A stretch of DNA of 64,000 nucleotides from Candidatus Multivoradales bacterium (GCA_965223155.1 CBDCVR010000013.1:288001-352000); one strand, 5' to 3'; positions 8,531 through 19,763 are shown, numbered from the stretch's first letter. The notes: generated by a model from the letters alone, not told the origin. Made by a program: numbers and translations.

Positions 8531-9154
8531 GTGGCGAAGAAGCTGTACTTCAAGATCGGCGAAGCGTGCAAGCGGCTGGACATCCAGCCCTATGTGCTGC
8601 GCTATTGGGAGACCGAGTTCAGTGCCCTGAGCCCGGATAAGAGCAAGTCGGGCCAGCGGGTCTACTCCGAGGCGGATTTGCGCGTCATCGCCCGCATCAA
8701 GGAGCTCCTCTACGACGAGGGCTACACCATTGCGGGCGCGAAAAAGAAGCTCGAGAAGGAAGACCTGAGCGACCTGCCTCCGGTGGGTGCCAAGGCCGCC
8801 GCCCCCCCCAAGGCGGACACAGAGGACGTGGACGAGCTGGCTTCCGAGGAAGAGGACGGCGCCGCAGCCGACGCCAGGGCCTCCAGCGATGCGAACGACG
8901 AGGCCAAGGCGGCAGCCGAGCCCGAGCCAGCGAAGCCCGGAACCAAAGCTGCCGCCAAGCGGCCCGCGCCGGCCACGACGTCGAGCTCCAAGCCCGCCAA
9001 GAAGAAGACTCCCCCTAAAGCCCCGAAGAAGGCTCCGAAGAAAGCTGCGAAGAAGGCCTCGCCCAAGCCCAGCGCCTCTGAAGCCAAGCTCCGCCGGGGC
9101 GTGCGCGAAGCGCTCAAAGAAGCCCAGGCGCTCCTGGATTCCCTGTCGGACTGA
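8531..9154 (+). CDS. MerR-family HTH regulator with low-complexity acidic and Lys/Ala/Pro-rich linker
   Basis: YFKIGE...YVLRYWETEF...GQRVYS...GYTIAGAKK. Confidence 0.9.
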   Translation: MAKKLYFKIGEACKRLDIQPYVLRYWETEFSALSPDKSKSGQRVYSEADLRVIARIKELLYDEGYTIAGAKKKLEKEDLSDLPPVGAKAAAPPKADTEDVDELASEEEDGAAADARASSDANDEAKAAAEPEPAKPGTKAAAKRPAPATTSSSKPAKKKTPPKAPKKAPKKAAKKASPKPSASEAKLRRGVREALKEAQALLDSLSD

Positions 9155-9204
9155 TATGGAACTTGTGGACATCCAGGCCCAGATACGTGCTAGCTTTCTT
9201 CACT

Positions 9205-9293
9205 GACCGATCCTCCGTTGTATGCGGCTCTGCCGCGGTTCTCCGTTTGAAAGACCCACGGTAACCCGCGGACCTACAACCGGTGGATCGGTC
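9205..9293 (+). ncRNA. Candidate structured ncRNA (long hairpin)
   Basis: GACCGATCC/GGATCGGTC, TTGTA/TACAA, CCGCGG-TT/AA-C-CCGCGG, CCGT/ACGG nested helices; TG-n-TAGCTT extended -10 at 9188-9196. Confidence 0.45.
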
Positions 9294-9479
9294 GTTCCAT
9301 ACTGTCTAGCCGGGCCGCTCTGGCCAGGCTCACCCGTCGAACGAACGGGTCCCCGTTGCGAGGGCCCTCGCCCTGCCGGGCCAGGTCGACCGGCTGATTC
9401 GAGCGAAGCGAACAGCACGCGCGGGAACGCCTTCCGGCTCGACAGGTCCCGGCGCCGTTGGGTAAAGTAGCCGACCGGT

Positions 9480-9556
9480 CGGGACGTGGCGCAGTCTGGT
9501 AGCGTACCTGAATGGGGTTCAGGGGGTCGCGAGTTCAAATCTCGCCGTCCCGACCA
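9480..9556 (+). tRNA. tRNA-Pro(GGG)
   Basis: CGGGACGTGGCGCAGTCTGGTAGCG...CCTGA-ATGGGGT-TCAGG...GTTCAAATC...CCA. Confidence 0.97.
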
Positions 9557-9949
9557 TAACTTCCCTGGCTTCAATAACTTGCAGTGGCCCTAGAATGGGC
9601 CAGATGCGGCCCTTCGATATGGGGCACTGGGTGGGGCACAAAGCGCCCAGTTTCCGCCCGGTTTACTAGGTATTATCGAGCCGATGGCCCGAGTAGTTCG
9701 AAGCGCAGCGGCTGGACGGGCCGAAGAGTCACGGTGCGCGTTGACCACCTGACCGTTGTTCGCGCTGCCACTCCGTCGTCTACCCGCAGCGGCATAGCAG
9801 CCAGACACGTGAGCCAAGAACCCGCAGATGACGAAACCCCACGAGAGGTAGGTGCCAGATGAGATGAGTCGGTCGGTCTCCAGCTGGGACACTGTGCCAG
9901 TTGGAGATAACCAAGGAATCGGCATCAGAGCCGAGAAAGGAGACCGACC

Positions 9950-10963
9950 ATGGAGTATGTTGGCATTGATGTTCACTCGAAGTACAGCGAGGTTTGCGGG
10001 ATATCGGAAGAGGGGGAAGTGACGCTTCGCCGGCGGATTCCGACTACGGAGACAGCCTTGCGCCGGTTCTTCGGTTGTCGTGAGCAGTCGCAGGTGACGC
10101 TCGAAAGCGGCCCGGTGACTCCTTGGGTGTACCGGTTGCTGTGTGAGCTGGGACACGAGGTGACGGTAGTCAACCCGCGGCGGGTGCGGCTGATCGCGGA
10201 GTCGACATTGAAGACCGACGGAATCGACGCCGAGGTGTTGGCTCGATTGAGCCGGTTGGATCTCGACCTCCTGCGTCCCGTGTACCAGCGTACGCGTGAG
10301 GCCCAGGAGCTTCGGGCCAGGCTTCGCGTACGTACGAGCCTGGTCAAAGCCAGGACATCGTTGATCAACGCGGTGCGTGGAACGTTGCGAGCTCAAGGGT
10401 ACCGAGTGCCATCGTGCCCGGCCAAGAGCTTCGTCGTGCGCTACGCATCGATGGGTCTCGACAGTTCTCTTGCGGAAACGATCGATCCTCTGGTGACGAC
10501 GATCGGCGAGTTGACGGATCGGATCAACCGGCTCGAGAAGGAGCTCGTAGCCGAGTCGAGCTCAAACGAGCTGTTGGTGCGGCTTCAGACGGTCCCTGGG
10601 GTGGGCCCCTTGGTGAGCTTGGCCTTCCTGGGTTGGATGGATCGCCCGGATCGGTTCAGAAAGAGTCGAGACGTGGGTGCGTGTTTGGGCTTGAGACCGT
10701 CGCTTCGAAGCTCAGGAGGACACGAGATCCGAGGCCGGATCACACGGGAGGGCGACGCCGAGATGCGAAGGCTTCTGGTTCAAGCGGCTCATGCGGCGTT
10801 GAACTGTCGCAAAGAGTCGTCGCTCAAGAACTGGGCTGAGAGCTTGGTCGAGAGGCTCGGCAAGGGCAAGGCCGTCGTGGCCCTAGCGAGGAAGATCGCA
10901 GTGTTGCTCCATCGGCTATGGGTAACGGGCGATACTTTCCGGGCGTTCCCCCAGGCGGTGTAG
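9950..10963 (+). CDS. IS110-family DEDD recombinase/transposase (A)
   Basis: GIDVH, LESG, KTDGIDA (RuvC-like DEDD), VPGVGP, SSGG, VALARK; RBS AAGGAG. Confidence 0.96.
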   Translation: MEYVGIDVHSKYSEVCGISEEGEVTLRRRIPTTETALRRFFGCREQSQVTLESGPVTPWVYRLLCELGHEVTVVNPRRVRLIAESTLKTDGIDAEVLARLSRLDLDLLRPVYQRTREAQELRARLRVRTSLVKARTSLINAVRGTLRAQGYRVPSCPAKSFVVRYASMGLDSSLAETIDPLVTTIGELTDRINRLEKELVAESSSNELLVRLQTVPGVGPLVSLAFLGWMDRPDRFRKSRDVGACLGLRPSLRSSGGHEIRGRITREGDAEMRRLLVQAAHAALNCRKESSLKNWAESLVERLGKGKAVVALARKIAVLLHRLWVTGDTFRAFPQAV

Positions 10964-10995
10964 AGCCTAGAGAACATCAGGTCGCACCAGAAAGG

Positions 10996-11148
10996 AAGGA
11001 CGGATTGAAAGTTTCGATGACTCCGAGAAAAGGGTTGGAGGCCAGGACTCCGCGTGCCAGATGGGAGCATCGAATCCTCAACGGACGAAAAACTCACCAT
11101 GCACCGGTCCAAGAAAGGACCCGCCAGAGTGCGAATAGAAGCTCGTCC
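10996..11148 (+). ncRNA. Predicted bridge RNA/seekRNA of IS variant A
   Basis: Two internal-loop hairpins; guides AAAGG(GT) 11029-35 and GTGCCAG 11054-60 match the flanks; ATAGAAG 11135-41 matches the IS end. Boundaries approximate. Confidence 0.8.
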
Positions 11149-11270
11149 TGAGGCTCCATCCGAGACCCGAAACACATGGGGAGACGATGACAGACACCTT
11201 GACCGAAACGACCGACTCATAGAAGCCTTTCCGCGAAAGCTAGTCAGTAGTTGACGTTTTCGAAAAGGGT

Positions 11271-11328
11271 GGTGCCTATTCTTGGGGGCACAGTGTCCCA
11301 GCTGGAGACCGACCGACCCATCTCATCT
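11271..11328 (-). mobile_element. Left-end remnant of a related IS1111-type element
   Basis: Reverse complement reads AG-ATGAGATGGGTCGGTCGGTCTCCAGCTGGGACACTGTGCC..CCAAGAATAGGCACC, near-identical to the left ends of A and B. Confidence 0.85.
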
Positions 11329-11352
11329 GGAACCTATCGATGGGAGGTCAGG

Positions 11353-11658
11353 TCAGGAGGAACCCATAATAGAGCTAAGTACCTCTAAGAGAAGGCACGA
11401 AAAGGCTGCCATCAGGAAGATAGACAGTGCGCAGTACAAGACCGACAGGACTGCTAACCAAGGGTCGCCCAACCGAAGTGGTCTGAAGCTGTACATGTAG
11501 CGCCAGAACCGGACGGTCTGCTGGGACGTCATAAAGTTTGAAGGCTTGCCCGCTCGTTGCCACTCATCTTCGTGATATTTCCGAAGTCGCCGCAACAAGG
11601 CCACCCCCACAAACATGGCTGGAAGCATCGCCGCGAAGAAGGCTATCTCAAGGCTCAT
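11353..11658 (-). CDS. Small hypothetical membrane protein
   Basis: 101 aa with two hydrophobic segments. Confidence 0.6.
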   Translation of the reverse strand: MSLEIAFFAAMLPAMFVGVALLRRLRKYHEDEWQRAGKPSNFMTSQQTVRFWRYMYSFRPLRLGDPWLAVLSVLYCALSIFLMAAFSCLLLEVLSSIMGSS

Positions 11659-11685
11659 AGAGGTGGCCCCCCTTGTTCGGACAGT

Positions 11686-13056
11686 GAGTTATCGTCAAAT
11701 GTTGTGTACGGGTGACTCAGGCGGCGATCCGGTTCTTGGGTTCTCCATCAACGAATTTGACACCTCGGACAACGTCGGCGATTCGCTTGTAGCCCTGTAG
11801 CCGCCGCCATCGTTTCTCGGCACTCTGGCTCAGCTTGAAGACCATCGAGAGCATGGTCTCGCGGGAGAGACAACCACGGGTCTTGGCCGTTCGAAGGCGT
11901 ACGGTGGCAAAGGTCGACTCGATCGGGTTCGTGGTCCTGAGATGGACCCAATGCTCGGCCGGGAAATCGTAGAAGGTCAGCAGGACCTTGCGATCCTTGG
12001 CCAGGCAACGCGTCGCCTTCGGGTACTTGGCCCCGTAGGTCGACAGGAAGGCATCGAAGGCTCGCTCGGCAGCCTCGCGCGTTTCGGCCATCCAGACCTG
12101 GTGCAGCGCCTGCTTGGCCTTTGGCTGGACGGCCTTGGGCATCTTGTTCAAGACGTTGCCGGTCTTGTGGACCCAGCAACGCTGGGTCTTGGTGTTGCTC
12201 CAGACCTGAGCCAGGGCCTTCCAGAAGCCCAGAGCGCCGTCACCGGTCGCCAGCTTCGGCTCGATGGCAAGCCCTCGCGCTTCGAGTCCACGCAAGAGCT
12301 CGAGCCAGGAAGCCTCGCTCTCGCGGTAGCCGTCTTCGACGGCGATGAGCTCCTTGGTGCCGTCCTCGGTGGCGCCAATCAGTACCAGCAGGCACAGCTT
12401 CGCGTCGTCCAGACGAGCCTTGGTATGGATCCCATCCGCCCACACGTAGACGTAGCGCTTGGAGGACAAGTCCCGGGTGCGCCAGTCGGTGTACTCCTTG
12501 GCCCAGACTTTCTTCAGACGGCTGATCGTCGCGGCTGACAACCCCGGGGCGTCGGGGCCTACCAGAGCTTCCAGGGCATCGGAGAAATCTCCGGTGGAGA
12601 TGCCGCGCAGATAGAGCCACGGCAGCAGCTCCTCGACGCTCTTGGCCCGTCTGAGATACGGAGGCGCGATCTTCGAGCGAAAGACCAACTCACCTTCACG
12701 ATCCCGAACCCGAGGCACCTTCACCGGCACACCTCCGATTCCCGTCTGGATCTCACGCTCGCGCAGGTAGCCGTTGCGAACCATGCGGCGCCGGCCATCT
12801 TCCGTTTGCTCGCCTCGGTACTCGGCCAGGAAGCTCTCGACCTCGGCTTCGATCGCTTCGCGAAGCAACTCGCGTGAGCCGCGGCGAAGCACTTCGGTCA
12901 AGGCATCTCTCGAACTCTCTGATCGGTCAATCGAAACTACGTTACTCTTGCTCAAGGCGTATCCTCCTTCTTTGAGGGTTTGAATCCGATTTGGAAAACC
13001 GGACTCAGGATACGCCGCCTTCATCTCAACTCATACACAACTTTCGACCATAGCTC
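11686..13056 (-). mobile_element. IS256-family element
   Basis: Imperfect 23-bp TIRs GAGTTATCGTCAAATGTTGTGTA / GAGCTATGGTCGAAAGTTGTGTA; 9-bp TSD TCGGACAGT at 11677-11685 and 13057-13065. Confidence 0.95.
11717..12955 (-). CDS. IS256-family transposase
   Basis: RNGY, VPRVRDR, WADGI, QRCWVHK, RTTNPIES; TTG start with AGGAGGA RBS. Confidence 0.95.
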   Translation of the reverse strand: MSKSNVVSIDRSESSRDALTEVLRRGSRELLREAIEAEVESFLAEYRGEQTEDGRRRMVRNGYLREREIQTGIGGVPVKVPRVRDREGELVFRSKIAPPYLRRAKSVEELLPWLYLRGISTGDFSDALEALVGPDAPGLSAATISRLKKVWAKEYTDWRTRDLSSKRYVYVWADGIHTKARLDDAKLCLLVLIGATEDGTKELIAVEDGYRESEASWLELLRGLEARGLAIEPKLATGDGALGFWKALAQVWSNTKTQRCWVHKTGNVLNKMPKAVQPKAKQALHQVWMAETREAAERAFDAFLSTYGAKYPKATRCLAKDRKVLLTFYDFPAEHWVHLRTTNPIESTFATVRLRTAKTRGCLSRETMLSMVFKLSQSAEKRWRRLQGYKRIADVVRGVKFVDGEPKNRIAA

Positions 13057-13087
13057 TCGGACAGTTCGGCGGCAGTGAATTCGGAGT

Positions 13088-13171
13088 GAATTCGGTGACA
13101 GGATACATATTTCGAGTGTCCCTCTGCGGCCGGATTCTTCCCTTGAAATTGGTATCCTGTCACCGAATTTC
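13088..13171. repeat. Palindromic repeat copy R1 (intact)
   Basis: Perfect 18-bp IR AATTCGGTGACAGGATAC (13089-13106 / 13152-13169) around a conserved spacer. Confidence 0.92.
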
Positions 13172-13179
13172 CCCCCAGC

Positions 13180-13524
13180 GTGGAATCCGATGGATTGCAC
13201 ACTCTCGTAGTGCCGTCGCGGGAGCGGAGCAGCGGTCAGCCTCAGGTCGACTTCTCAGTCGAGTATCCGCCCTGGGACGGGAGCCTTGACGACTCCAGAC
13301 TAGCGCCGCCCCCGGGCGTAAGCGGTGGCGGGATCTGGACGGTCCCTATATTCAAAGCGAACCGCCTGTGGGCTCCAGAACGCGCGGAGTTGGTCGGAGT
13401 GGCGAGGAGCTGGTCGCGGCAGAACAAGGAGCTCGTCTGCGTGCGTATAGAGGAGTGGCTCGCGATCCTTCGGCAAGACGTCGGCGATCTAGCGCCCGCT
13501 ATTGACGCGGCGGCTGGCCAGTAG
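13180..13524 (+). pseudogene. Probable 5'-truncated gene; trypsin-like protease C-terminal part
   Basis: PPGVSGGGIW...LVGVA resembles the GxSGG region; begins right after R1 with no N-terminal half. Confidence 0.4.
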
Positions 13525-13529
13525 CTATC

Positions 13530-14249
13530 TCAGTCCGCGCAGTTGTTGTACCGGAGCGTGTTCGCCTTCCACTCGTCGCGAGCGCTGCACCCGGCAACGT
13601 ACTCCTCAAGAAGGACGCGACACCGCGCTGGCGAGGGCGCGTGAAGGCCTGCCAACGTTGCGATCTCCCCGATCATCTCGTCCTGCGAATGGACCCAGTC
13701 AACTGCTAGAACGTCGGCTTTGGTCTCGACGTCAACGGCTGCTGGCAGGTCGGACCGGAGCGATGAATCGACAACCAAGAGAGCTCCGCGCGGGCGCTTT
13801 TGGCTGAGCTTGTAGGAGTTGATCAACGCACTGCCCATAACCGGGAAGATCGTCATCAGGCCTTCGCCCATCCTGATCACACCATCCGTCGACTTCGCCA
13901 TGACCGAATCGGGGTAGCAGCCCTGTACATCCGCGAAGCCACCCGTCGACAGAGCTGCTCTCGCAACGCCTCCACCGGCGAGAACGTGCCGAAGTACGCC
14001 GATCGCAACGGCGACGGGTTTCCCCAGCGCCTGTTCGCCAAAGCTCGGAACGACTACGAAGCCATCGCCAAGCTGGTGGGCAAACAGGCGATGCGGCTCC
14101 TCCGCGAGGCACATCGCGCCAATGCGGTGAATCGCCTCCATTAGTCGACCAAGGCGCACTAGAGCCTCAGCCTGGTGCATGGCGTACGTATCAGAGAACC
14201 CCTCGAGATCGAGATAGAGGGACCACTTGTCTTCGCCAGTCCGCCACAT
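13530..14249 (-). CDS. Hypothetical protein, class III nucleotidyl-cyclase-like
   Basis: YLDLEGFS, LGDGF, RAALSTG, GSALINSYKL; start set at ATG 14249 because the longer ORF runs into the IS. Confidence 0.6.
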   Translation of the reverse strand: MWRTGEDKWSLYLDLEGFSDTYAMHQAEALVRLGRLMEAIHRIGAMCLAEEPHRLFAHQLGDGFVVVPSFGEQALGKPVAVAIGVLRHVLAGGGVARAALSTGGFADVQGCYPDSVMAKSTDGVIRMGEGLMTIFPVMGSALINSYKLSQKRPRGALLVVDSSLRSDLPAAVDVETKADVLAVDWVHSQDEMIGEIATLAGLHAPSPARCRVLLEEYVAGCSARDEWKANTLRYNNCAD

Positions 14250-14373
14250 TGAGGTCAACGGTTGCTGTGGAATTCGGTGACAGATGAGATGAGTCGGTCG
14301 GTCTCCAGCTGGGACACTGTGCCAGTTGGAGATAACCAAGAATCGGCATCAGAGCCGAGAAAGGAGACCGACC

Positions 14374-15387
14374 ATGGAGTATCTTGGCATCGATGTTCAC
14401 TCGAAGTACAGCGAGGTGTGTGGCGTATCAGAAGACGGTGAGGTGACGGTTCGCCGGCGGGTTCCGACGACCGAGACGGGCCTGCGAAGGTTCTTCGCCA
14501 ATCGGGAACGCTCGCAGGTGACGCTCGAGAGCGGTCCGGTCACACCCTGGGTCTATCGACTGCTGTCTGAGCTCGGCCATGAGGTGATGGTGGTCAATCC
14601 ACGCCGGGTACGTCTGATCGCGGAATCGACCCTGAAGACGGACGGAATCGACGCCGAGATCCTGGCTCGTTTGAGCCGGTTGGATCTGGGTTTGCTTCGA
14701 CCAGTCTACCAGCGCACAGGTGAGGCCCAAGAGCTTCGGACGCGTCTTCGGGTCCGAACGAGTCTGGTGAAGACCAGGACCTCGCTGATCAACTCCGTAC
14801 GCGGAACGCTGCGGGCACAGGGCTACCGAGTGCCCTCATGTCCGGCGAAGAGCTTCGTGGCTCGGTACGCGTCGATGTCGGTCGAAGCCGGCCTGTTGGG
14901 AGCGCTCGAACCTCTGGTAACGACAATCGGCGAGCTGACCGATCGGATCCACCATCTCGAAGACGACCTCATCTCCGAGTCGAGATCAAACGAGCTGGTC
15001 CGTCGGCTGCAGACGGTTCCTGGTGTGGGGCCTCTGGTGAGCCTTGCGTTCGTCGGCTGGATGGATCGTCCGGATCGGTTCGAGAAAAGCCGCGACGTCG
15101 GAGCGTGTCTGGGCTTGAGACCGTCGCTTCGCAGCTCAGGAGGGCATGAGGTCAGGGGCCGGATCACTCGCGAGGGCGACTCGGAGATGCGCAGACTCTT
15201 GGTGCAGGCAGCTCATGCGGCGTTGAACTGTCGCAAAGAGTCGTCACTCAAGAGATGGGCTGAGGGCCTGGTCGAGAGGCTGGGTAAGGGCAAGGCCGTG
15301 GTCGCGCTAGCTAGGAAGATCGCGGTGTTGCTCCACAGGCTGTGGGTGACAGGTGAGAGCTTCCGAGCCTTTCCCAAGGCAGCGTAG
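14374..15387 (+). CDS. IS110-family recombinase/transposase (B)
   Basis: Same motifs as A; 337 aa, closely similar to A. Confidence 0.96.
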   Translation: MEYLGIDVHSKYSEVCGVSEDGEVTVRRRVPTTETGLRRFFANRERSQVTLESGPVTPWVYRLLSELGHEVMVVNPRRVRLIAESTLKTDGIDAEILARLSRLDLGLLRPVYQRTGEAQELRTRLRVRTSLVKTRTSLINSVRGTLRAQGYRVPSCPAKSFVARYASMSVEAGLLGALEPLVTTIGELTDRIHHLEDDLISESRSNELVRRLQTVPGVGPLVSLAFVGWMDRPDRFEKSRDVGACLGLRPSLRSSGGHEVRGRITREGDSEMRRLLVQAAHAALNCRKESSLKRWAEGLVERLGKGKAVVALARKIAVLLHRLWVTGESFRAFPKAA

Positions 15388-15413
15388 AAGAGATAACTAG
15401 ACGACCAACAAGC

Positions 15414-15566
15414 AAGGACGGATTGAGAGGTTCGATGACTCCGAAAGTATCCTTGGTGGCCCCGACACCGTGTGACAGATGGGAGCATCGATTCCTAAAC
15501 GGACGCAAAACTCACCATGCACCGGTTCAAAGAAGAACCCTACAGAGTGCGAATAGAAGCTCGTCC
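15414..15566 (+). ncRNA. Predicted bridge RNA/seekRNA of variant B copy 1
   Basis: Guides GTATCCT (15447-53) and GTGACAG (15472-78) match the target; ATAGAAG (15553-59) and CTCA (15511-14) match the donor junction. Confidence 0.83.
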
Positions 15567-15645
15567 CAAGCCTCGATCCAAACCTAAGGAAAACTACAAA
15601 AAGAAGAAACGAAACTCTTGACGCCAACCGACCGACTCATAGAAG

Positions 15646-15747
15646 GATACATATTTCCTGACGGTTCCGGTGACAGGATACATATTTCGAGGGTCCCTCT
15701 GCGGCCGGATTCTTCCCTTGAAATAGGTATCCTGTCACCGGATTTCC
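15646..15747. repeat. Palindromic repeat copy R2, preceded by the remainder of an IS-interrupted extra arm
   Basis: CCGGTGACAGGATACATATTTCGAG...CTTGAAATAGGTATCCTGTCACCGG; the other half of the extra arm is at 14270-14283. Confidence 0.9.
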
Positions 15748-15771
15748 AGTGGAATTCCGGCTCGGCTCGCG

Positions 15772-17064
15772 TCACCTGATACCGGGGATTCGTACCGCGG
15801 GGATGATCTCGTCGAGCAGGATCTGCTCCGGCATCCAGAAAAAGTCCGGGTCGTTGTACCCGCCGCACAGGATCACGACGAGGAGGTCGAGTGCGGGAAT
15901 GACGTAGATGCGCTGGCCACCATTCCCGGCGGCGGTATGGACCTCCAGCTCGGCGGAGTCCGTGCCGTAAAGATCGTGCCACCAGAGGTATCCGTAGCCG
16001 AATTCGCCGATCTCTTTCTCGCGTCCGGTCACGGCAAGACGCCGCCGCGTCGATTCGCTCACCCAGGATTCGGTCAGGATCTGCTCGCCGTTCCAGCGCC
16101 CGCCGCTGAGATACAGCGAGCCGAACTTTGCGAAGTCTCGCGCTGTCATCCAGACGTTTCCGCCGGGGTCCGAGTTTGTCGCCCAGGGCCGATCGCTCTC
16201 CCACGCGAGCTCGGGCACGGAGTCCCAGTTCGAATAGCTGGCCCATTCGACGTCTCGTATTCCCAGCGGTTCAAAGAGCAGTTCTCGGGCGTAGGCGCCG
16301 AAGGCCTTGTTCGTAGCACGTGCCACCGCGATACCCAGCATCGCGGGCAACCCGGAGTTGTAGTACCACTGCGTACCGGGAGTCGAGGCCATCGAGCGGC
16401 TGAACACGTAGGCTGCCGGGTCGTCGTGCGCAGTCGTTCGCTCTGCGTCGTTCGAAGGGTCGGTGTACGGCACCTCGAACTCGTTCCAGCGGAGCCCGGC
16501 ACTCATCATCAACGCGTGGCGGACGGTGATTGCACGTTTCTCCGGCGTAGCCAGCGAATCTAGTTCCGGGAAGTAGTCGAGCAGCGGGGTGTCGAGCGAC
16601 GGGATCGCTTGGCGATCGAGCGCGATTCCAACGACTGCCGAAGTGATGCTCTTCCCCACGGAGCGCGAGTCGTGCAGCGTGGTCCGGTCGAACTCGACGG
16701 TCACGGTCTCAAAACGCTCTCCATTCCAGCGCTTGTCTTCTCCCGTGAAATACGATTCGTACACGAGTTGGCCGCTCTTGGCGATCAGCACCGCATGGAC
16801 GTTCGGGTACCGCTCGCCCTGGCGCAGCGCTGCGGTCATGGAGTCGAGGCGTGAAACGTCGAGTCCCGCGTCGGACGCGGCACCAACGCCCCATCCATCG
16901 TCGGTCCTGGCAGGCGTCCAGGCGGCCTCGGGCGACGCCGCGGTCGGAGTGGGTGCCGAATTCTCGGTCGTTCCACAGCCCTGGGATGCCAGCAGACAGA
17001 GTGCAACCGCAGTTACCGTCCAGTGTCGGGGTGTCACCGTCGCAAGACGTCTTGCAGCTCTCAT
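15772..17064 (-). CDS. Serine hydrolase, beta-lactamase class C-like family; lipoprotein
   Basis: SVGK (SxxK), YYNS, AAGNGGQ; lipobox SQGC. Resistance function not established. Confidence 0.88.
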   Translation of the reverse strand: MRAARRLATVTPRHWTVTAVALCLLASQGCGTTENSAPTPTAASPEAAWTPARTDDGWGVGAASDAGLDVSRLDSMTAALRQGERYPNVHAVLIAKSGQLVYESYFTGEDKRWNGERFETVTVEFDRTTLHDSRSVGKSITSAVVGIALDRQAIPSLDTPLLDYFPELDSLATPEKRAITVRHALMMSAGLRWNEFEVPYTDPSNDAERTTAHDDPAAYVFSRSMASTPGTQWYYNSGLPAMLGIAVARATNKAFGAYARELLFEPLGIRDVEWASYSNWDSVPELAWESDRPWATNSDPGGNVWMTARDFAKFGSLYLSGGRWNGEQILTESWVSESTRRRLAVTGREKEIGEFGYGYLWWHDLYGTDSAELEVHTAAGNGGQRIYVIPALDLLVVILCGGYNDPDFFWMPEQILLDEIIPAVRIPGIR

Positions 17065-17180
17065 GGTGCCGGTACTCTAGTCCCAGGAGCCAGTATTCCC
17101 AAGGAGAATCTGCGTGTCCTTGACCCTCGGAAGTCGACCATCTGAGAGTCAAACCTCGGACGCGGCGATCTCTTGGCGAC

Positions 17181-17363
17181 AGAACAACGGAGAATGTCCT
17201 GGTCTTCGACTTCGACGGCGGCACGAATCTGGAGAACGCCGACCACTACTTCGGCGCAGCCAAGCTCACTCTGGACGGCGACCACCTCACCAGCGCCTGG
17301 ACCGCCTATGCGGGCAGCGAGAAAGCCGCCGGTATGACCTTTCACCTGGCGCGATCCGAGTAG
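17181..17363 (+). pseudogene. 3' fragment of a hypothetical gene
   Basis: Protein-like frame ENVLVFDFDGGTNLENADHYFG...FHLARSE-stop; no start after the in-frame stop at 17121. Confidence 0.45.
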
Positions 17364-17393
17364 TCCAGGTCGCCAACTCTTCAAGAGAGCAGC

Positions 17394-17429
17394 TAGTCAG
17401 GACGGCGAGATTCGAACTCGCGACCCCCT
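17394..17429 (-). repeat. att-like copy of the tRNA-Pro 3' end, inverted
   Basis: 33/36 identity to 9521-9556 on the opposite strand. Confidence 0.88.
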
Positions 17430-17474
17430 ATGCCCGAAGCCGGAGACCGCTAAAACACCCTTCTCCAGCAGCTC

Positions 17475-18221
17475 CTAGTTGTACAACAGGTAGACCAGTG
17501 CCTGGCCGAGCGGAATCGTCGGCAACACGAGAGCTGCCACCAAGATGAAGATCATCAAGAGTGGTGCGCCCCATCGCACTACCCCGTGCACTCGTCCCAG
17601 CGTCCACCGATCGTAGAACATGACTATTCCCAGGAGTAAAGCCAGTCCACCGAGGCCATAGGCGGCCTCACTGAGCATCGGCGAAGGGCTGATTTGTAGC
17701 GACGGGGACCGACCGATACGCGCAAGCGCCTGGCCCATCATCGCAAGAGATGCGAGCATCATGAGCCTCATGTGAGCCTCACGATTGCGACGGTGCCAAA
17801 CGCCCAACGCGACAAAAGACGCGAAAGCGATTACGAGTATCAGGTTGCCCCACAAGAACTGGCTCGCCCGCTCGACGCTGCCACCGGATTCGCGAAACTC
17901 AAGAACACCGCGGTAGAGAATCGAGAGTCCTGAGAGGACCATCAAGCCGGCGAGAACGGCCCCCAGCCCGCCGAGGCGGCGGTGGAACCGACGTTGGCCC
18001 GCTTGAACTAGAACGCTCTGGACGATAAGCAGAACGAACCACGAGGTGAAGAGGACGCCGTGGAGCTTCGTTCGTAGCGGCAACTCAGGGCTGTTGAACG
18101 CGCCGCGCAGAAAGTACGTGGGCGCAAAGCCGATGATGTTGAGGGCTAGGAGCAGAACGGCGAACCAGAGGACGAACCGCTGAGCGGCCCCGTTGGGCAA
18201 ACTTCCCTGGGTGCTTGGCAT
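17475..18221 (-). CDS. Hypothetical multi-pass membrane protein
   Basis: GFAPTYF, HGVLFTSW, HRRLG, HMRLM; about 7 hydrophobic segments; GGAGGAG RBS. Confidence 0.8.
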   Translation of the reverse strand: MPSTQGSLPNGAAQRFVLWFAVLLLALNIIGFAPTYFLRGAFNSPELPLRTKLHGVLFTSWFVLLIVQSVLVQAGQRRFHRRLGGLGAVLAGLMVLSGLSILYRGVLEFRESGGSVERASQFLWGNLILVIAFASFVALGVWHRRNREAHMRLMMLASLAMMGQALARIGRSPSLQISPSPMLSEAAYGLGGLALLLGIVMFYDRWTLGRVHGVVRWGAPLLMIFILVAALVLPTIPLGQALVYLLYN

Positions 18222-18295
18222 GACTCCTCCTGGTTTTGTCCGCCGGCCATCGTATCCCAGCGCACCCCCAGCCCCCTCCGAGATTCCTACCCTGG

Positions 18296-18389
18296 GTGAA
18301 TTCGGTGACAGGATACGTGAATTCGGTGACAGGATACATATTTCGAGTGTCCCCCTGCGGCCGGATTCTTCCCTTGAAATAGGTATCCT
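18296..18389. repeat. Palindromic repeat copy R3 with tandem left arm; right arm interrupted by IS and completed at 19751-19765
   Basis: GTGAATTCGGTGACAGGATAC x2, spacer, GAAATAGGTATC-CT-[IS]-GTCACCGGATTTC. Confidence 0.9.
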
Positions 18390-18467
18390 TCTATGAGTCG
18401 GTCGGTTGGCGTCAAGAGTTTCGTTTCTTCTTTTTGTAGTTTTCCTTAGGTTTTGGATCGAGGCTTG

Positions 18468-18620
18468 GGACGAGCTTCTATTCGCACTCTGTAGGGTTCT
18501 TCTTTGAACCGGTGCATGGTGAGTTTTGCGTCCGTTTAGGAATCGATGCTCCCATCTGTCACACGGTGTCGGGGCCACCAAGGATACTTTCGGAGTCATC
18601 GAACCTCTCAATCCGTCCTT
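18468..18620 (-). ncRNA. Predicted bridge RNA/seekRNA of variant B copy 2
   Basis: Reverse complement of 15414-15566. Confidence 0.83.
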
Positions 18621-18646
18621 GCTTGTTGGTCGTCTAGTTATCTCTT

Positions 18647-19660
18647 CTACGCTGCCTTGGGAAAGGCTCGGAAGCTCTCACCTGTCACCCACAGCCTGTG
18701 GAGCAACACCGCGATCTTCCTAGCTAGCGCGACCACGGCCTTGCCCTTACCCAGCCTCTCGACCAGGCCCTCAGCCCATCTCTTGAGTGACGACTCTTTG
18801 CGACAGTTCAACGCCGCATGAGCTGCCTGCACCAAGAGTCTGCGCATCTCCGAGTCGCCCTCGCGAGTGATCCGGCCCCTGACCTCATGCCCTCCTGAGC
18901 TGCGAAGCGACGGTCTCAAGCCCAGACACGCTCCGACGTCGCGGCTTTTCTCGAACCGATCCGGACGATCCATCCAGCCGACGAACGCAAGGCTCACCAG
19001 AGGCCCCACACCAGGAACCGTCTGCAGCCGACGGACCAGCTCGTTTGATCTCGACTCGGAGATGAGGTCGTCTTCGAGATGGTGGATCCGATCGGTCAGC
19101 TCGCCGATTGTCGTTACCAGAGGTTCGAGCGCTCCCAACAGGCCGGCTTCGACCGACATCGACGCGTACCGAGCCACGAAGCTCTTCGCCGGACATGAGG
19201 GCACTCGGTAGCCCTGTGCCCGCAGCGTTCCGCGTACGGAGTTGATCAGCGAGGTCCTGGTCTTCACCAGACTCGTTCGGACCCGAAGACGCGTCCGAAG
19301 CTCTTGGGCCTCACCTGTGCGCTGGTAGACTGGTCGAAGCAAACCCAGATCCAACCGGCTCAAACGAGCCAGGATCTCGGCGTCGATTCCGTCCGTCTTC
19401 AGGGTCGATTCCGCGATCAGACGTACCCGGCGTGGATTGACCACCATCACCTCATGGCCGAGCTCAGACAGCAGTCGATAGACCCAGGGTGTGACCGGAC
19501 CGCTCTCGAGCGTCACCTGCGAGCGTTCCCGATTGGCGAAGAACCTTCGCAGGCCCGTCTCGGTCGTCGGAACCCGCCGGCGAACCGTCACCTCACCGTC
19601 TTCTGATACGCCACACACCTCGCTGTACTTCGAGTGAACATCGATGCCAAGATACTCCAT
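18647..19660 (-). CDS. IS110-family recombinase/transposase (B)
   Basis: Translation identical to 14374-15387. Confidence 0.96.
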   Translation of the reverse strand: MEYLGIDVHSKYSEVCGVSEDGEVTVRRRVPTTETGLRRFFANRERSQVTLESGPVTPWVYRLLSELGHEVMVVNPRRVRLIAESTLKTDGIDAEILARLSRLDLGLLRPVYQRTGEAQELRTRLRVRTSLVKTRTSLINSVRGTLRAQGYRVPSCPAKSFVARYASMSVEAGLLGALEPLVTTIGELTDRIHHLEDDLISESRSNELVRRLQTVPGVGPLVSLAFVGWMDRPDRFEKSRDVGACLGLRPSLRSSGGHEVRGRITREGDSEMRRLLVQAAHAALNCRKESSLKRWAEGLVERLGKGKAVVALARKIAVLLHRLWVTGESFRAFPKAA

Positions 19661-19763
19661 GGTCGGTCTCCTTTCTCGGCTCTGATGCCGATTCTTGGTT
19701 ATCTCCAACTGGCACAGTGTCCCAGCTGGAGACCGACCGACTCATCTCATCTGTCACCGGATT

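Follow-up and report, generated by a model that had tools for sequence, protein, structure and literature searches.

Matching guide loops and target sites in two paralogous IS1111-type insertion sequences of a Candidatus Multivoradales bacterium

The window analyzed here is a stretch of 64,000 nucleotides from a Candidatus Multivoradales bacterium (GCA_965223155.1 CBDCVR010000013.1:288001-352000). Sequence reading, the list of open reading frames (ORFs) and a repeat search found three copies of one kind of insertion sequence (IS) in this window, designated A, B1 and B2. Downstream of each transposase gene lies a structured region of two domains, and the internal loop of its first stem-loop holds both halves of the site into which the element is inserted. 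The original prediction for this locus was that A and B represent two natural guide states of an RNA-guided recombinase, with loops that covary with their different targets. We describe the elements, their insertion sites and their relatives in other genomes, and weigh this interpretation against its alternatives.

Results

Insertion sequences and transposases

The copies and their main parts are as follows.

9859-11225, plus strand: IS copy A (A1), 1367 bp, including the right-hand core AG at 11224-25
G000:C15:372322-373687, elsewhere in the same genome: second A copy (A2), identical to A1
14284-15645, plus strand: IS copy B1, 1362 bp, including the right-hand core AG at 15644-45
18388-19750, minus strand: IS copy B2, 99% identical to B1, inserted in the right arm of a palindromic repeat
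9950-10963, plus strand: transposase of A, 337 aa, DEDD_Tnp_IS110 and Transposase_20 domains, motif GLRPSLRSSG
14374-15387, plus strand: transposase of B, 337 aa, 86% identical to that of A
9866-9875 with 11209-11218: subterminal inverted repeat of A, 10 bp
14291-14302, plus strand, with its partner at 15627-15638: subterminal inverted repeat of B1, left copy GAGTCGGTCGGT

Each copy consists of a left end of 90-91 nt, an ORF of 337 aa and a non-coding right part of 258-262 nt. The genome (15 contigs, 4.0 Mb) contains 14 full B copies, one B copy split by another IS, and the two identical A copies. A single 40-nt left-end fragment was the only remaining A/B-type sequence found in a whole-genome search, which returned no orphan copies of the RNA gene. 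Overall, A and B are about 81-83% identical in DNA sequence. Their left ends (9859-9949 in A, 14284-14373 in B) agree at 90/91 positions, compared to 80% identity in the ORFs and 64% in the region after the donor loop, and this conservation exceeds that among other close relatives. The near-identity of the left ends points to very strong constraint or to gene conversion between the two elements in this genome. The last 17 nt of the right ends, CGACCGACTC through the core, are identical, and the proteins share 290/336 residues, as anticipated by the original prediction of closely similar proteins and ends. Codon differences between A and B comprise 125 synonymous and 47 non-synonymous changes, and both elements are, judged by their sequences, under selection.

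Both proteins matched PF01548 (DEDD_Tnp_IS110, 86-88 bits) and PF02371 (74-75 bits) in Pfam, and scored 245 and 241 bits against the NCBIfam model NF033542, "IS110 family RNA-guided transposase", which has a cut-off of 140. Among solved structures, the closest in sequence are those of ISCro4 and IS621, with E values of about 1e-10 (6e-10 for IS621). Siddiquee et al. (2024; PMC11187229) describe IS1111 transposases as 330-350 aa long with a C-terminal motif, GL-P----S(t)G, that includes the catalytic serine region; GLRPSLRSSG at residues 246-255 of both proteins corresponds to this motif and has a predicted catalytic role. The subterminal inverted repeats, 12 bp in B and 10 bp in A, fall within the 7-17 bp of the IS1111 group, and GAGTCGGTCGGT is set back from the left end by 7 nt and from the right end by 5 nt plus the core. 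As in other members of the group, the longer non-coding region (258-262 nt, compared to 90-91 nt upstream) is downstream of the transposase gene. Insertion is site-specific and produces no conventional target duplication in 15/15 B and 2/2 A copies: only a 2-nt core is present at both junctions, and uninterrupted sites hold one core only. Because the Pfam and NCBIfam matches, the motif, the subterminal repeats and the downstream non-coding region agree, we assign both elements to the IS1111 group; by every sequence-level criterion A and B are paralogous members of this group within the IS110 family. The recombinase had been called compact, with 337 aa and a 12-bp target; the figures hold (337 aa, about 12 bp), although such dimensions are ordinary for IS1111.

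Insertion sites in palindromic repeats

Both types are inserted in palindromic repeats, of which the window contains the following.

13093-13172: intact 80-nt palindromic repeat with the B target GGTGACAGGATAC in both arms
15668-15747 and 18324-18387: further copies of the 80-nt repeat, the latter interrupted by B2
11226-11281: remainder of the palindromic repeat of ~66 nt that holds A1, its left arm beginning at 9849-9858

B1 and B2 both have GGTGACAG as their left and (AG)GATAC as their right flank, and A in the window has GGTGCCAG and (AG)CCTTT, which confirms in sequence that the B copies lie in GTGAC-AG-GATAC and A in GTGCC-AG-CCTTT. Genome-wide, GGTGACAG precedes 15/15 B copies, and the core AG is followed by GATAC in 14 and GATGC in 1; the B site is GGTGAC-AG-GAT(A/G)C in every copy. 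When copies with identical 12+14-nt flanks were merged, 10 distinct flank pairs remained. Both A copies occupy GGT(G/T)CC-A(G/C)-CCTTT, with junctions GGTGCC-AG (left) and AG-CCTTTCC (right) in A1 and GGTTCC-AG and AC-CCTTTTC in A2.

Uninterrupted sites were found for both targets, as the original prediction had asked of reconstructed pre-insertion sites. The genome contains 17 unoccupied sites with the 12-mer GTGACAGGATAC, compared to 0.48 expected, mostly within the 80-nt palindromic repeat family. Empty paralogues of both A sites, at G000:C4:9446 and C14:185512, are present within the less common ~66-nt palindromic repeat, and the two sequences read GGTGCC-AC-CCTTT and GGTTCC-AC-CCTTT. Since these uninterrupted paralogues carry AC, the native core of the A target is AC and the core at the element junction is AG. 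A-type repeats are rare, with three genomic matches to GT[GT]CCA[GC]CCTTT, and the ratio of 15 B to 2 A copies fits an abundant B repeat and a rare A repeat. Contigs of four DNA runs over 9600-16000 contained neither a circle junction nor an empty site; they gave only a higher summed depth over B and loose ends near ~14270 and 15655.

Predicted target-binding stem-loops of A and B

The first domain of each structured region is a 60-nt stem-loop with the following parts.

11014-11073, plus strand: A target-binding stem-loop, outer stem TCGATG-A-CTCC / GGAG-CATCGA
11025-11036, plus strand: A 5' loop strand GAGAAAAGGGTT, reverse complement ACCCTTTTC
11037-11051, plus strand: A inner hairpin
11052-11063, plus strand: A 3' loop strand GCGTGCCAGATG
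15432-15491, plus strand: B target-binding stem-loop
15443-15454, plus strand: B 5' loop strand GAAAGTATCCTT, reverse complement AAGGATAC
15455-15469, plus strand: B inner hairpin
15470-15481, plus strand: B 3' loop strand GTGTGACAGATG

The proposed scaffold, TCGATGACTCC-12 nt-GGWG-N7-CWCC-12 nt-GGAGCATCGA, is present in both A and B, and all four of the predicted guide motifs are in place: GTATCCT at 15447-53 and GTGACAG at 15472-78 in B, and AAAGGGT at 11029-35 and GTGCCAG at 11054-60 in A. The compensatory changes noted between A and B are also real (GGAG/CTCC to GGTG/CACC, and GGTCC/GGACC to GGTTC/GAACC). By a count made by eye, the 60-nt target domains differ at 13 positions, 8 of which are in the two 12-nt loop strands; the others are two that form one compensatory pair, two in the apical loop and one at the 3' edge. 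The change of guide amounts to six bases in the 5' strand and two in the 3' strand. Within the 7-nt match, the left half changes by one base (C to A, GTGCC to GTGAC) and the right half by five. All 17 A and B insertions in this genome (15 B, 2 A) are at the site named by their own target loop, despite shared ends and near-identical donor loops.

In A, the two loop strands differ in their cores: the 5' strand carries the native target core AC and its reverse complement ACCCTTTTC matches the native site at 9/9 positions in A2, whereas the donor core AG is found in the 3' strand, GTGCCAG. The same AG/AC arrangement occurs in the relative closest to A, an element with four copies in another genome (G341), whose right junctions have both AG and AC. 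The original prediction had recorded a mismatch in the core of A. The mismatch exists, but because both empty paralogous A sites carry AC it is a real difference between donor and target and not a plain mismatch; from these sequences, the split core is a stable trait of the A lineage.

Guide and target covariation among relatives

Covariation of guides and targets, the wider check proposed with the original prediction, was examined in relatives found by searching 401 genomes of one class, 52 of which gave matches (own genome counted), together with one further relative from a metagenome-assembled genome. Even at about 40% protein identity the relatives retain a recognizable scaffold, and loop strands are highly variable among them. 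A strict automatic (regular expression) rule located the target loop in 39/55 distinct insertions, representing 21 guide types, 19 of them with both flanks. In these 19, guides matched their cognate flanks at 6.45/7 positions on the left and 7.16/9 on the right, compared to 4.01 and 4.05 when guides and targets were deranged, and 0/20,000 derangements scored as high. A covariance model trained on A, B and two close relatives returned 41 hits. The target loop was complete in 33 of these, which made up 24 guide types, 23 with both flanks; here the cognate values were 6.39/7 and 7.29/9 and the deranged values 4.03 and 4.15. None of 10,000 derangements reached the cognate score. Because this test retains a wrong left flank for one element (L020, 3/7; true flank CGGTGACAG), it is slightly conservative. 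Single-base differences are followed as well: the guides GAGCCAG, GTCCCAG, GTACCTG and GACGCCGAG each lie beside exactly that left flank.

Among three copies in G341 (L052, at G341:C4:804136-806743, L053 and L055), one is truncated directly after the target loop domain and lacks the donor loop and right end. The two other copies share an identical right flank of >100 nt and have different left flanks. These sequences suggest rearrangement between copies.

Donor loops, element ends and a candidate junction promoter

The second domain and the right end contain the following features.

11083-11148, plus strand: A donor-binding stem-loop, outer stem GGACG/CGTCC, stems GCAC/GTGC and GGTCC/GGACC
plus strand: A donor 5' strand AAAAACTCACCAT, matching left-end positions 2-5
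plus strand: A donor 3' strand GAATAGAAGCT, with ATAGAAG equal to right end plus core
15501-15566, plus strand: B donor-binding stem-loop, loop strands as in A except for one distal base
11199-11204, plus strand: conserved TTGACC, candidate -35 box, 19 nt before the last right-end base of A

We regard the second stem-loop as a donor loop because its strands match the element's own ends. Across relatives, the donor 3' strand tracks the right end (4.94/5), with ATAGAAG replaced by ATGGAAG in a clade whose right end is ...CATGGA-AG, and the 5' strand tracks left-end positions 2-5 (TGAG, TGGG, TTGG; 4.39/7). These scores were reached by 2 (3' strand) and 1 (5' strand) of 10,000 shuffles.

The sequence TTGAC lies 19-20 nt before the last right-end base in 36/38 right ends. 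A spacer of 17-18 nt places the -10 position on GA-AG-AT, a sequence that is formed only when the right end joins the left end. TTGAC and GAAGAT are a candidate promoter that would be completed in the circle junction. Junction promoters were reportedly described in this family by Prosseda and colleagues in 2006. A promoter and terminator scan of linear B1 returned nothing on the plus strand.

Separately, the left end of B1 (14284-14385) has a predicted RNA fold of -45.5 kcal/mol, compared to -27.0 for shuffles (z = -6.0), and the same fold is present in A (9859-9961). In its long-range stem the subterminal repeat GGTCGGTCTCC pairs with the Shine-Dalgarno and start region GGAGACCGACC-ATG, and 4/9 pairs show compensatory changes across 22 relatives. 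This fold may shut off translation of the transposase from read-through transcripts.

Predicted RNA structure and strand

In single-sequence folds, the A and B regions each form two stem-loops. In an alignment of 35 distinct sequences, pairing cells made up 93.9%, compared to 78.8% in shuffles and 32-48% with slid partners, and 16/28 stem pairs had changes on both sides; this alignment was fitted to the covariance model and leans towards it. An independent analysis with MAFFT and RNAalifold recovered the outer target stem, with 4/9 pairs compensatory. In stem cells read on the sense strand, G-U outnumbers A-C by 21 to 9. In IS621, left guides pair to the bottom and right guides to the top strand (Durrant et al. 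2024; PMC11208160), and in A and B only the transposase-sense strand follows this rule with all four guide strands. The matches in an Rfam scan of 9000-16500 were a tRNA and a chance microRNA-like match on the palindromic repeat.

Neighborhood of the elements

One further feature is a probable relic of the same kind of element.

11287-11336, minus strand: 40-nt left-end fragment of an A/B-type element, inverted, joined to 10 nt of A-type left target TAGGTTCCAG

This fragment sits 61 nt past the right end of A1 and, from its sequence, probably dates back to an older insertion that later suffered a deletion. At 11686-13056 (minus strand) lies an IS256-type element whose transposase belongs to the Mutator family (PF00872, 435-aa ORF); it is flanked by a 9-bp direct repeat, TCGGACAGT, at 11677-85 and 13057-65. 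On contig C7 a B copy is split by this element, there with a repeat of 8 bp. In a contig of sequencing run X2, positions 11241 and 11685 are linked through 969 other letters, and the stretch from A1 to the IS256-type element is arranged differently in that sample. A tRNA gene (9480-9553, 60.8 bits) lies about 300 nt upstream of A1, and a 34-nt inverted copy of the 3' part of this gene is at 17396-17429. The region 9850-19760 as a whole is a nest of insertion sequences and palindromic repeats beside a tRNA gene. About 25 nt separate the left end of B1 from the start of an ORF (13530-14258, minus strand) that encodes about 242 aa and had no match in Pfam, so that the B1 insertion is in the upstream region of this ORF.

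Discussion

We consider it very probable that A and B are IS1111 elements, each with a 337-aa recombinase and a downstream guide RNA that names the element's own insertion site. The anatomy of the elements, their insertion sites, the covariation of guides with targets and with element ends, and the covariation of stems were all observed here. The view of A and B as two natural guide states of one recombinase type holds, in that the loops differ exactly as the sites do and the donor loop is kept. Experiments on other IS1111 members have shown that RNA from this region is recovered together with the transposase and that movement depends on it (PMC11187229). Transcription of the region, binding by the recombinase, the chemistry of strand exchange and the promoter are modeled on such characterized relatives.

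In the model we propose, each element would encode a predicted DEDD/serine recombinase of 337 aa and, downstream on the same strand, a seekRNA or bridge RNA of about 135 nt with two stem-loops. The 3' strand of the target loop (GUGAC-AG in B, GUGCC-AG in A) would represent the left target half plus core and pair with the bottom strand, and the 5' strand (GUAUC-CU in B, AAAGG-GU in A) would be complementary to the core and right half on the top strand. In the donor loop, the 3' strand AUAGA-AG would be the sense of the right end plus core, and the 5' strand would be complementary to the start of the left end. Excision would yield a circle that joins the right end, the AG core and the left end, and this circle would probably complete a junction promoter made up of the right-end TTGAC and of GAAGAT, which spans the joint. 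The complex of RNA and recombinase would then recombine the circle junction with a matching genomic site at the 2-nt core. B would be aimed at GGTGAC-AG-GATAC in the abundant 80-nt palindromic repeat, with 15 copies as the outcome, and A at GGTKCC-AC-CCTTT in a rare palindromic repeat, with 2 copies.

Several observations weigh against this interpretation. The fit of guides to targets is uneven: right-flank misfits occur in the covariance-model set (L032, 3/9; L049, 5/9; one L035 copy, 5/9), the G341 element matches its right flanks at only 6/9, and extraction of target loops was incomplete under both procedures (39/55 insertions by the strict rule, 33/41 hits by the covariance model). The donor 5' strand matches the left end imperfectly (5/7, and 1/2 in the core), and few independent events underlie the donor test, because the variation is largely clade-wise. 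Single-sequence folds are only modestly better than shuffles (z of -1.4 to -1.8), and no bridge RNA family matched in the Rfam scan of 9000-16500 with E values up to 1. The antisense fold is more stable than the sense fold in 16/19 elements; taken alone, the sense target hairpin is better in 9, worse in 9 and equal in energy in 1, and the sense donor hairpin is better in 0, worse in 18 and equal in 1. When the terminal pair is included, the excess of G-U over A-C shrinks to 21 to 18. In addition, the guide of A and B is known here from DNA alone, and its role as RNA is deduced from relatives.

The most plausible of the alternatives, which we nonetheless judge unlikely, is that A is a decaying or mis-aimed copy and not a second functional guide state. 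The core differs between the two guide strands of A (AG in one, AC in the other), A is present in only two copies, and IS621 strongly prefers matched cores (PMC11208160). However, the two A copies are identical with an intact reading frame, and substitutions between A and B are mostly synonymous (125 compared to 47). The four-copy relative in G341 shares the AG/AC arrangement and has both cores at its right junctions, and the low copy number of A has a simple counterpart in the rarity of A-type target repeats, with three matching sites.

A second alternative is that the matching segments act as DNA, either single-stranded or as extruded hairpins comparable to the subterminal guides of IS200/IS605, or that an antisense transcript is the functional one. 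Stem covariation cannot separate RNA from single-stranded DNA, and the greater stability of the antisense fold in 16/19 elements is in line with this possibility. We think it highly improbable nevertheless: in characterized relatives the RNA in use comes from this region and is purified together with the transposase (PMC11187229), the protein belongs to an RNA-guided equivalog in NCBIfam, only the sense strand keeps the IS621 pairing rule for all four guides, and the stems favor G-U over A-C by 21 to 9. Least credible of all is a purely historical likeness of loop and flank, through captured pieces of target or mis-set ends and with a protein that reads palindromic repeats; both targets do lie in palindromic repeats that a protein could recognize, and the B copies of this genome share one guide and so count as one event, but the element ends are defined by uninterrupted sites and by the differing outer flanks of 15 B copies, the matches fall at the same two loop positions in 23 guide types with mutually unrelated targets, and proteins that are 86% identical with the same donor loops have sites that differ exactly as the loops do.

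If A and B are RNA-guided elements as proposed, a more speculative possibility, which we hold to be rather doubtful, is that the guide RNA works essentially in cis and that the recombinase of the A lineage tolerates a donor core AG against a target core AC. Cis action would follow because 17/17 insertions obey their own loop despite shared ends and recombinases that are 86% identical. It could come about if the RNA were loaded on a recombinase made from the same transcript, or if excision needed flanks that match the same RNA. Were this correct, the two target-loop strands of the A lineage would each read a different core within one loop.

With A and B, two natural guide states of one IS1111-type recombinase are well documented; scaffold, ends and donor loop are the same, and eight loop bases and the two target repeats differ. 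In addition, about two dozen related guide and target pairs were assembled from uncultured-type genomes. The pair offers a compact system in which loop swaps, tolerance of core mismatches, and the use of RNA in cis or in trans could be tested. Existing knowledge is left unchanged, as RNA-guided target choice, covariation and re-direction have been known since 2024. Our literature searches found nothing in print on this particular element, and the supplementary tables of the 2024 studies, which cover hundreds to thousands of elements, may include its clade.

The closest published parallels are in the IS1111 group itself. The seekRNA that lies downstream in IS1111 elements, and the order in which it carries its two target matches, are described by Siddiquee et al. 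(2024; PMC11187229), who in the same report present "natural re-direction" between the close relatives ISEc11 and ISXne4. For 93% of IS1111 elements, Durrant et al. (2024; PMC11208160) predict a bridge RNA in the right end, and they demonstrate complementarity of the loops with target and donor. As these sources already describe a right-end guide RNA and natural re-direction, A and B do not represent a new mechanism; the mechanism, family-wide covariation and re-direction were all published in 2024, and A and B add to a known class. Like ISEc11 and ISXne4 (PMC11187229), A and B have a DEDD transposase of 330-350 aa, subterminal inverted repeats and a long downstream non-coding region, with two short target matches in one folded RNA, the top-strand match 5' of the bottom-strand match, and close relatives keep the stem and differ in target-matching bases and sites. 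Unlike that pair, the two states of A and B are in one genome and their proteins are closer (86% compared to 72% identity). Their retargeting is also the smaller of the two, with one base changed on the left and five on the right within the match, and A and B are known from their sequence.

Like IS621 (Durrant et al. 2024, PMC11208160; Hiraizumi et al. 2024, PMC11208158), A and B have a target and a donor internal loop, each with bottom-left and top-right strands, a 2-nt core within the pairings, and a palindromic repeat as target. The core AG reads CT on the other strand, which bears out the predicted likeness to IS621 in this respect. The base beside the core in the 5' target strand appears to fit the donor (A) and not the target (C), which allows a handshake-type reading as in IS621. 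In contrast to IS621, the predicted RNA of A and B is in the right end (left end in IS621), the order of the target strands is reversed, the subterminal repeats are long, protein similarity extends only to an E value of 6e-10, and the A lineage has different cores in its two target strands. Site-specific insertion into repeated palindromes, with copy number set by the abundance of the repeat, is shared with ISPpu9/ISPpu10, ISPa11 and IS4321-type elements, which target REP sequences or transposon inverted repeats; the target sequences of A and B differ from theirs, and whereas ISPpu9 is described with extra ssr9 copies, the genome search found A and B without orphan copies of the RNA gene. Particular to A and B are the presence of both guide states in one genome, the small retargeting step, the shared donor loop and the split core of A.

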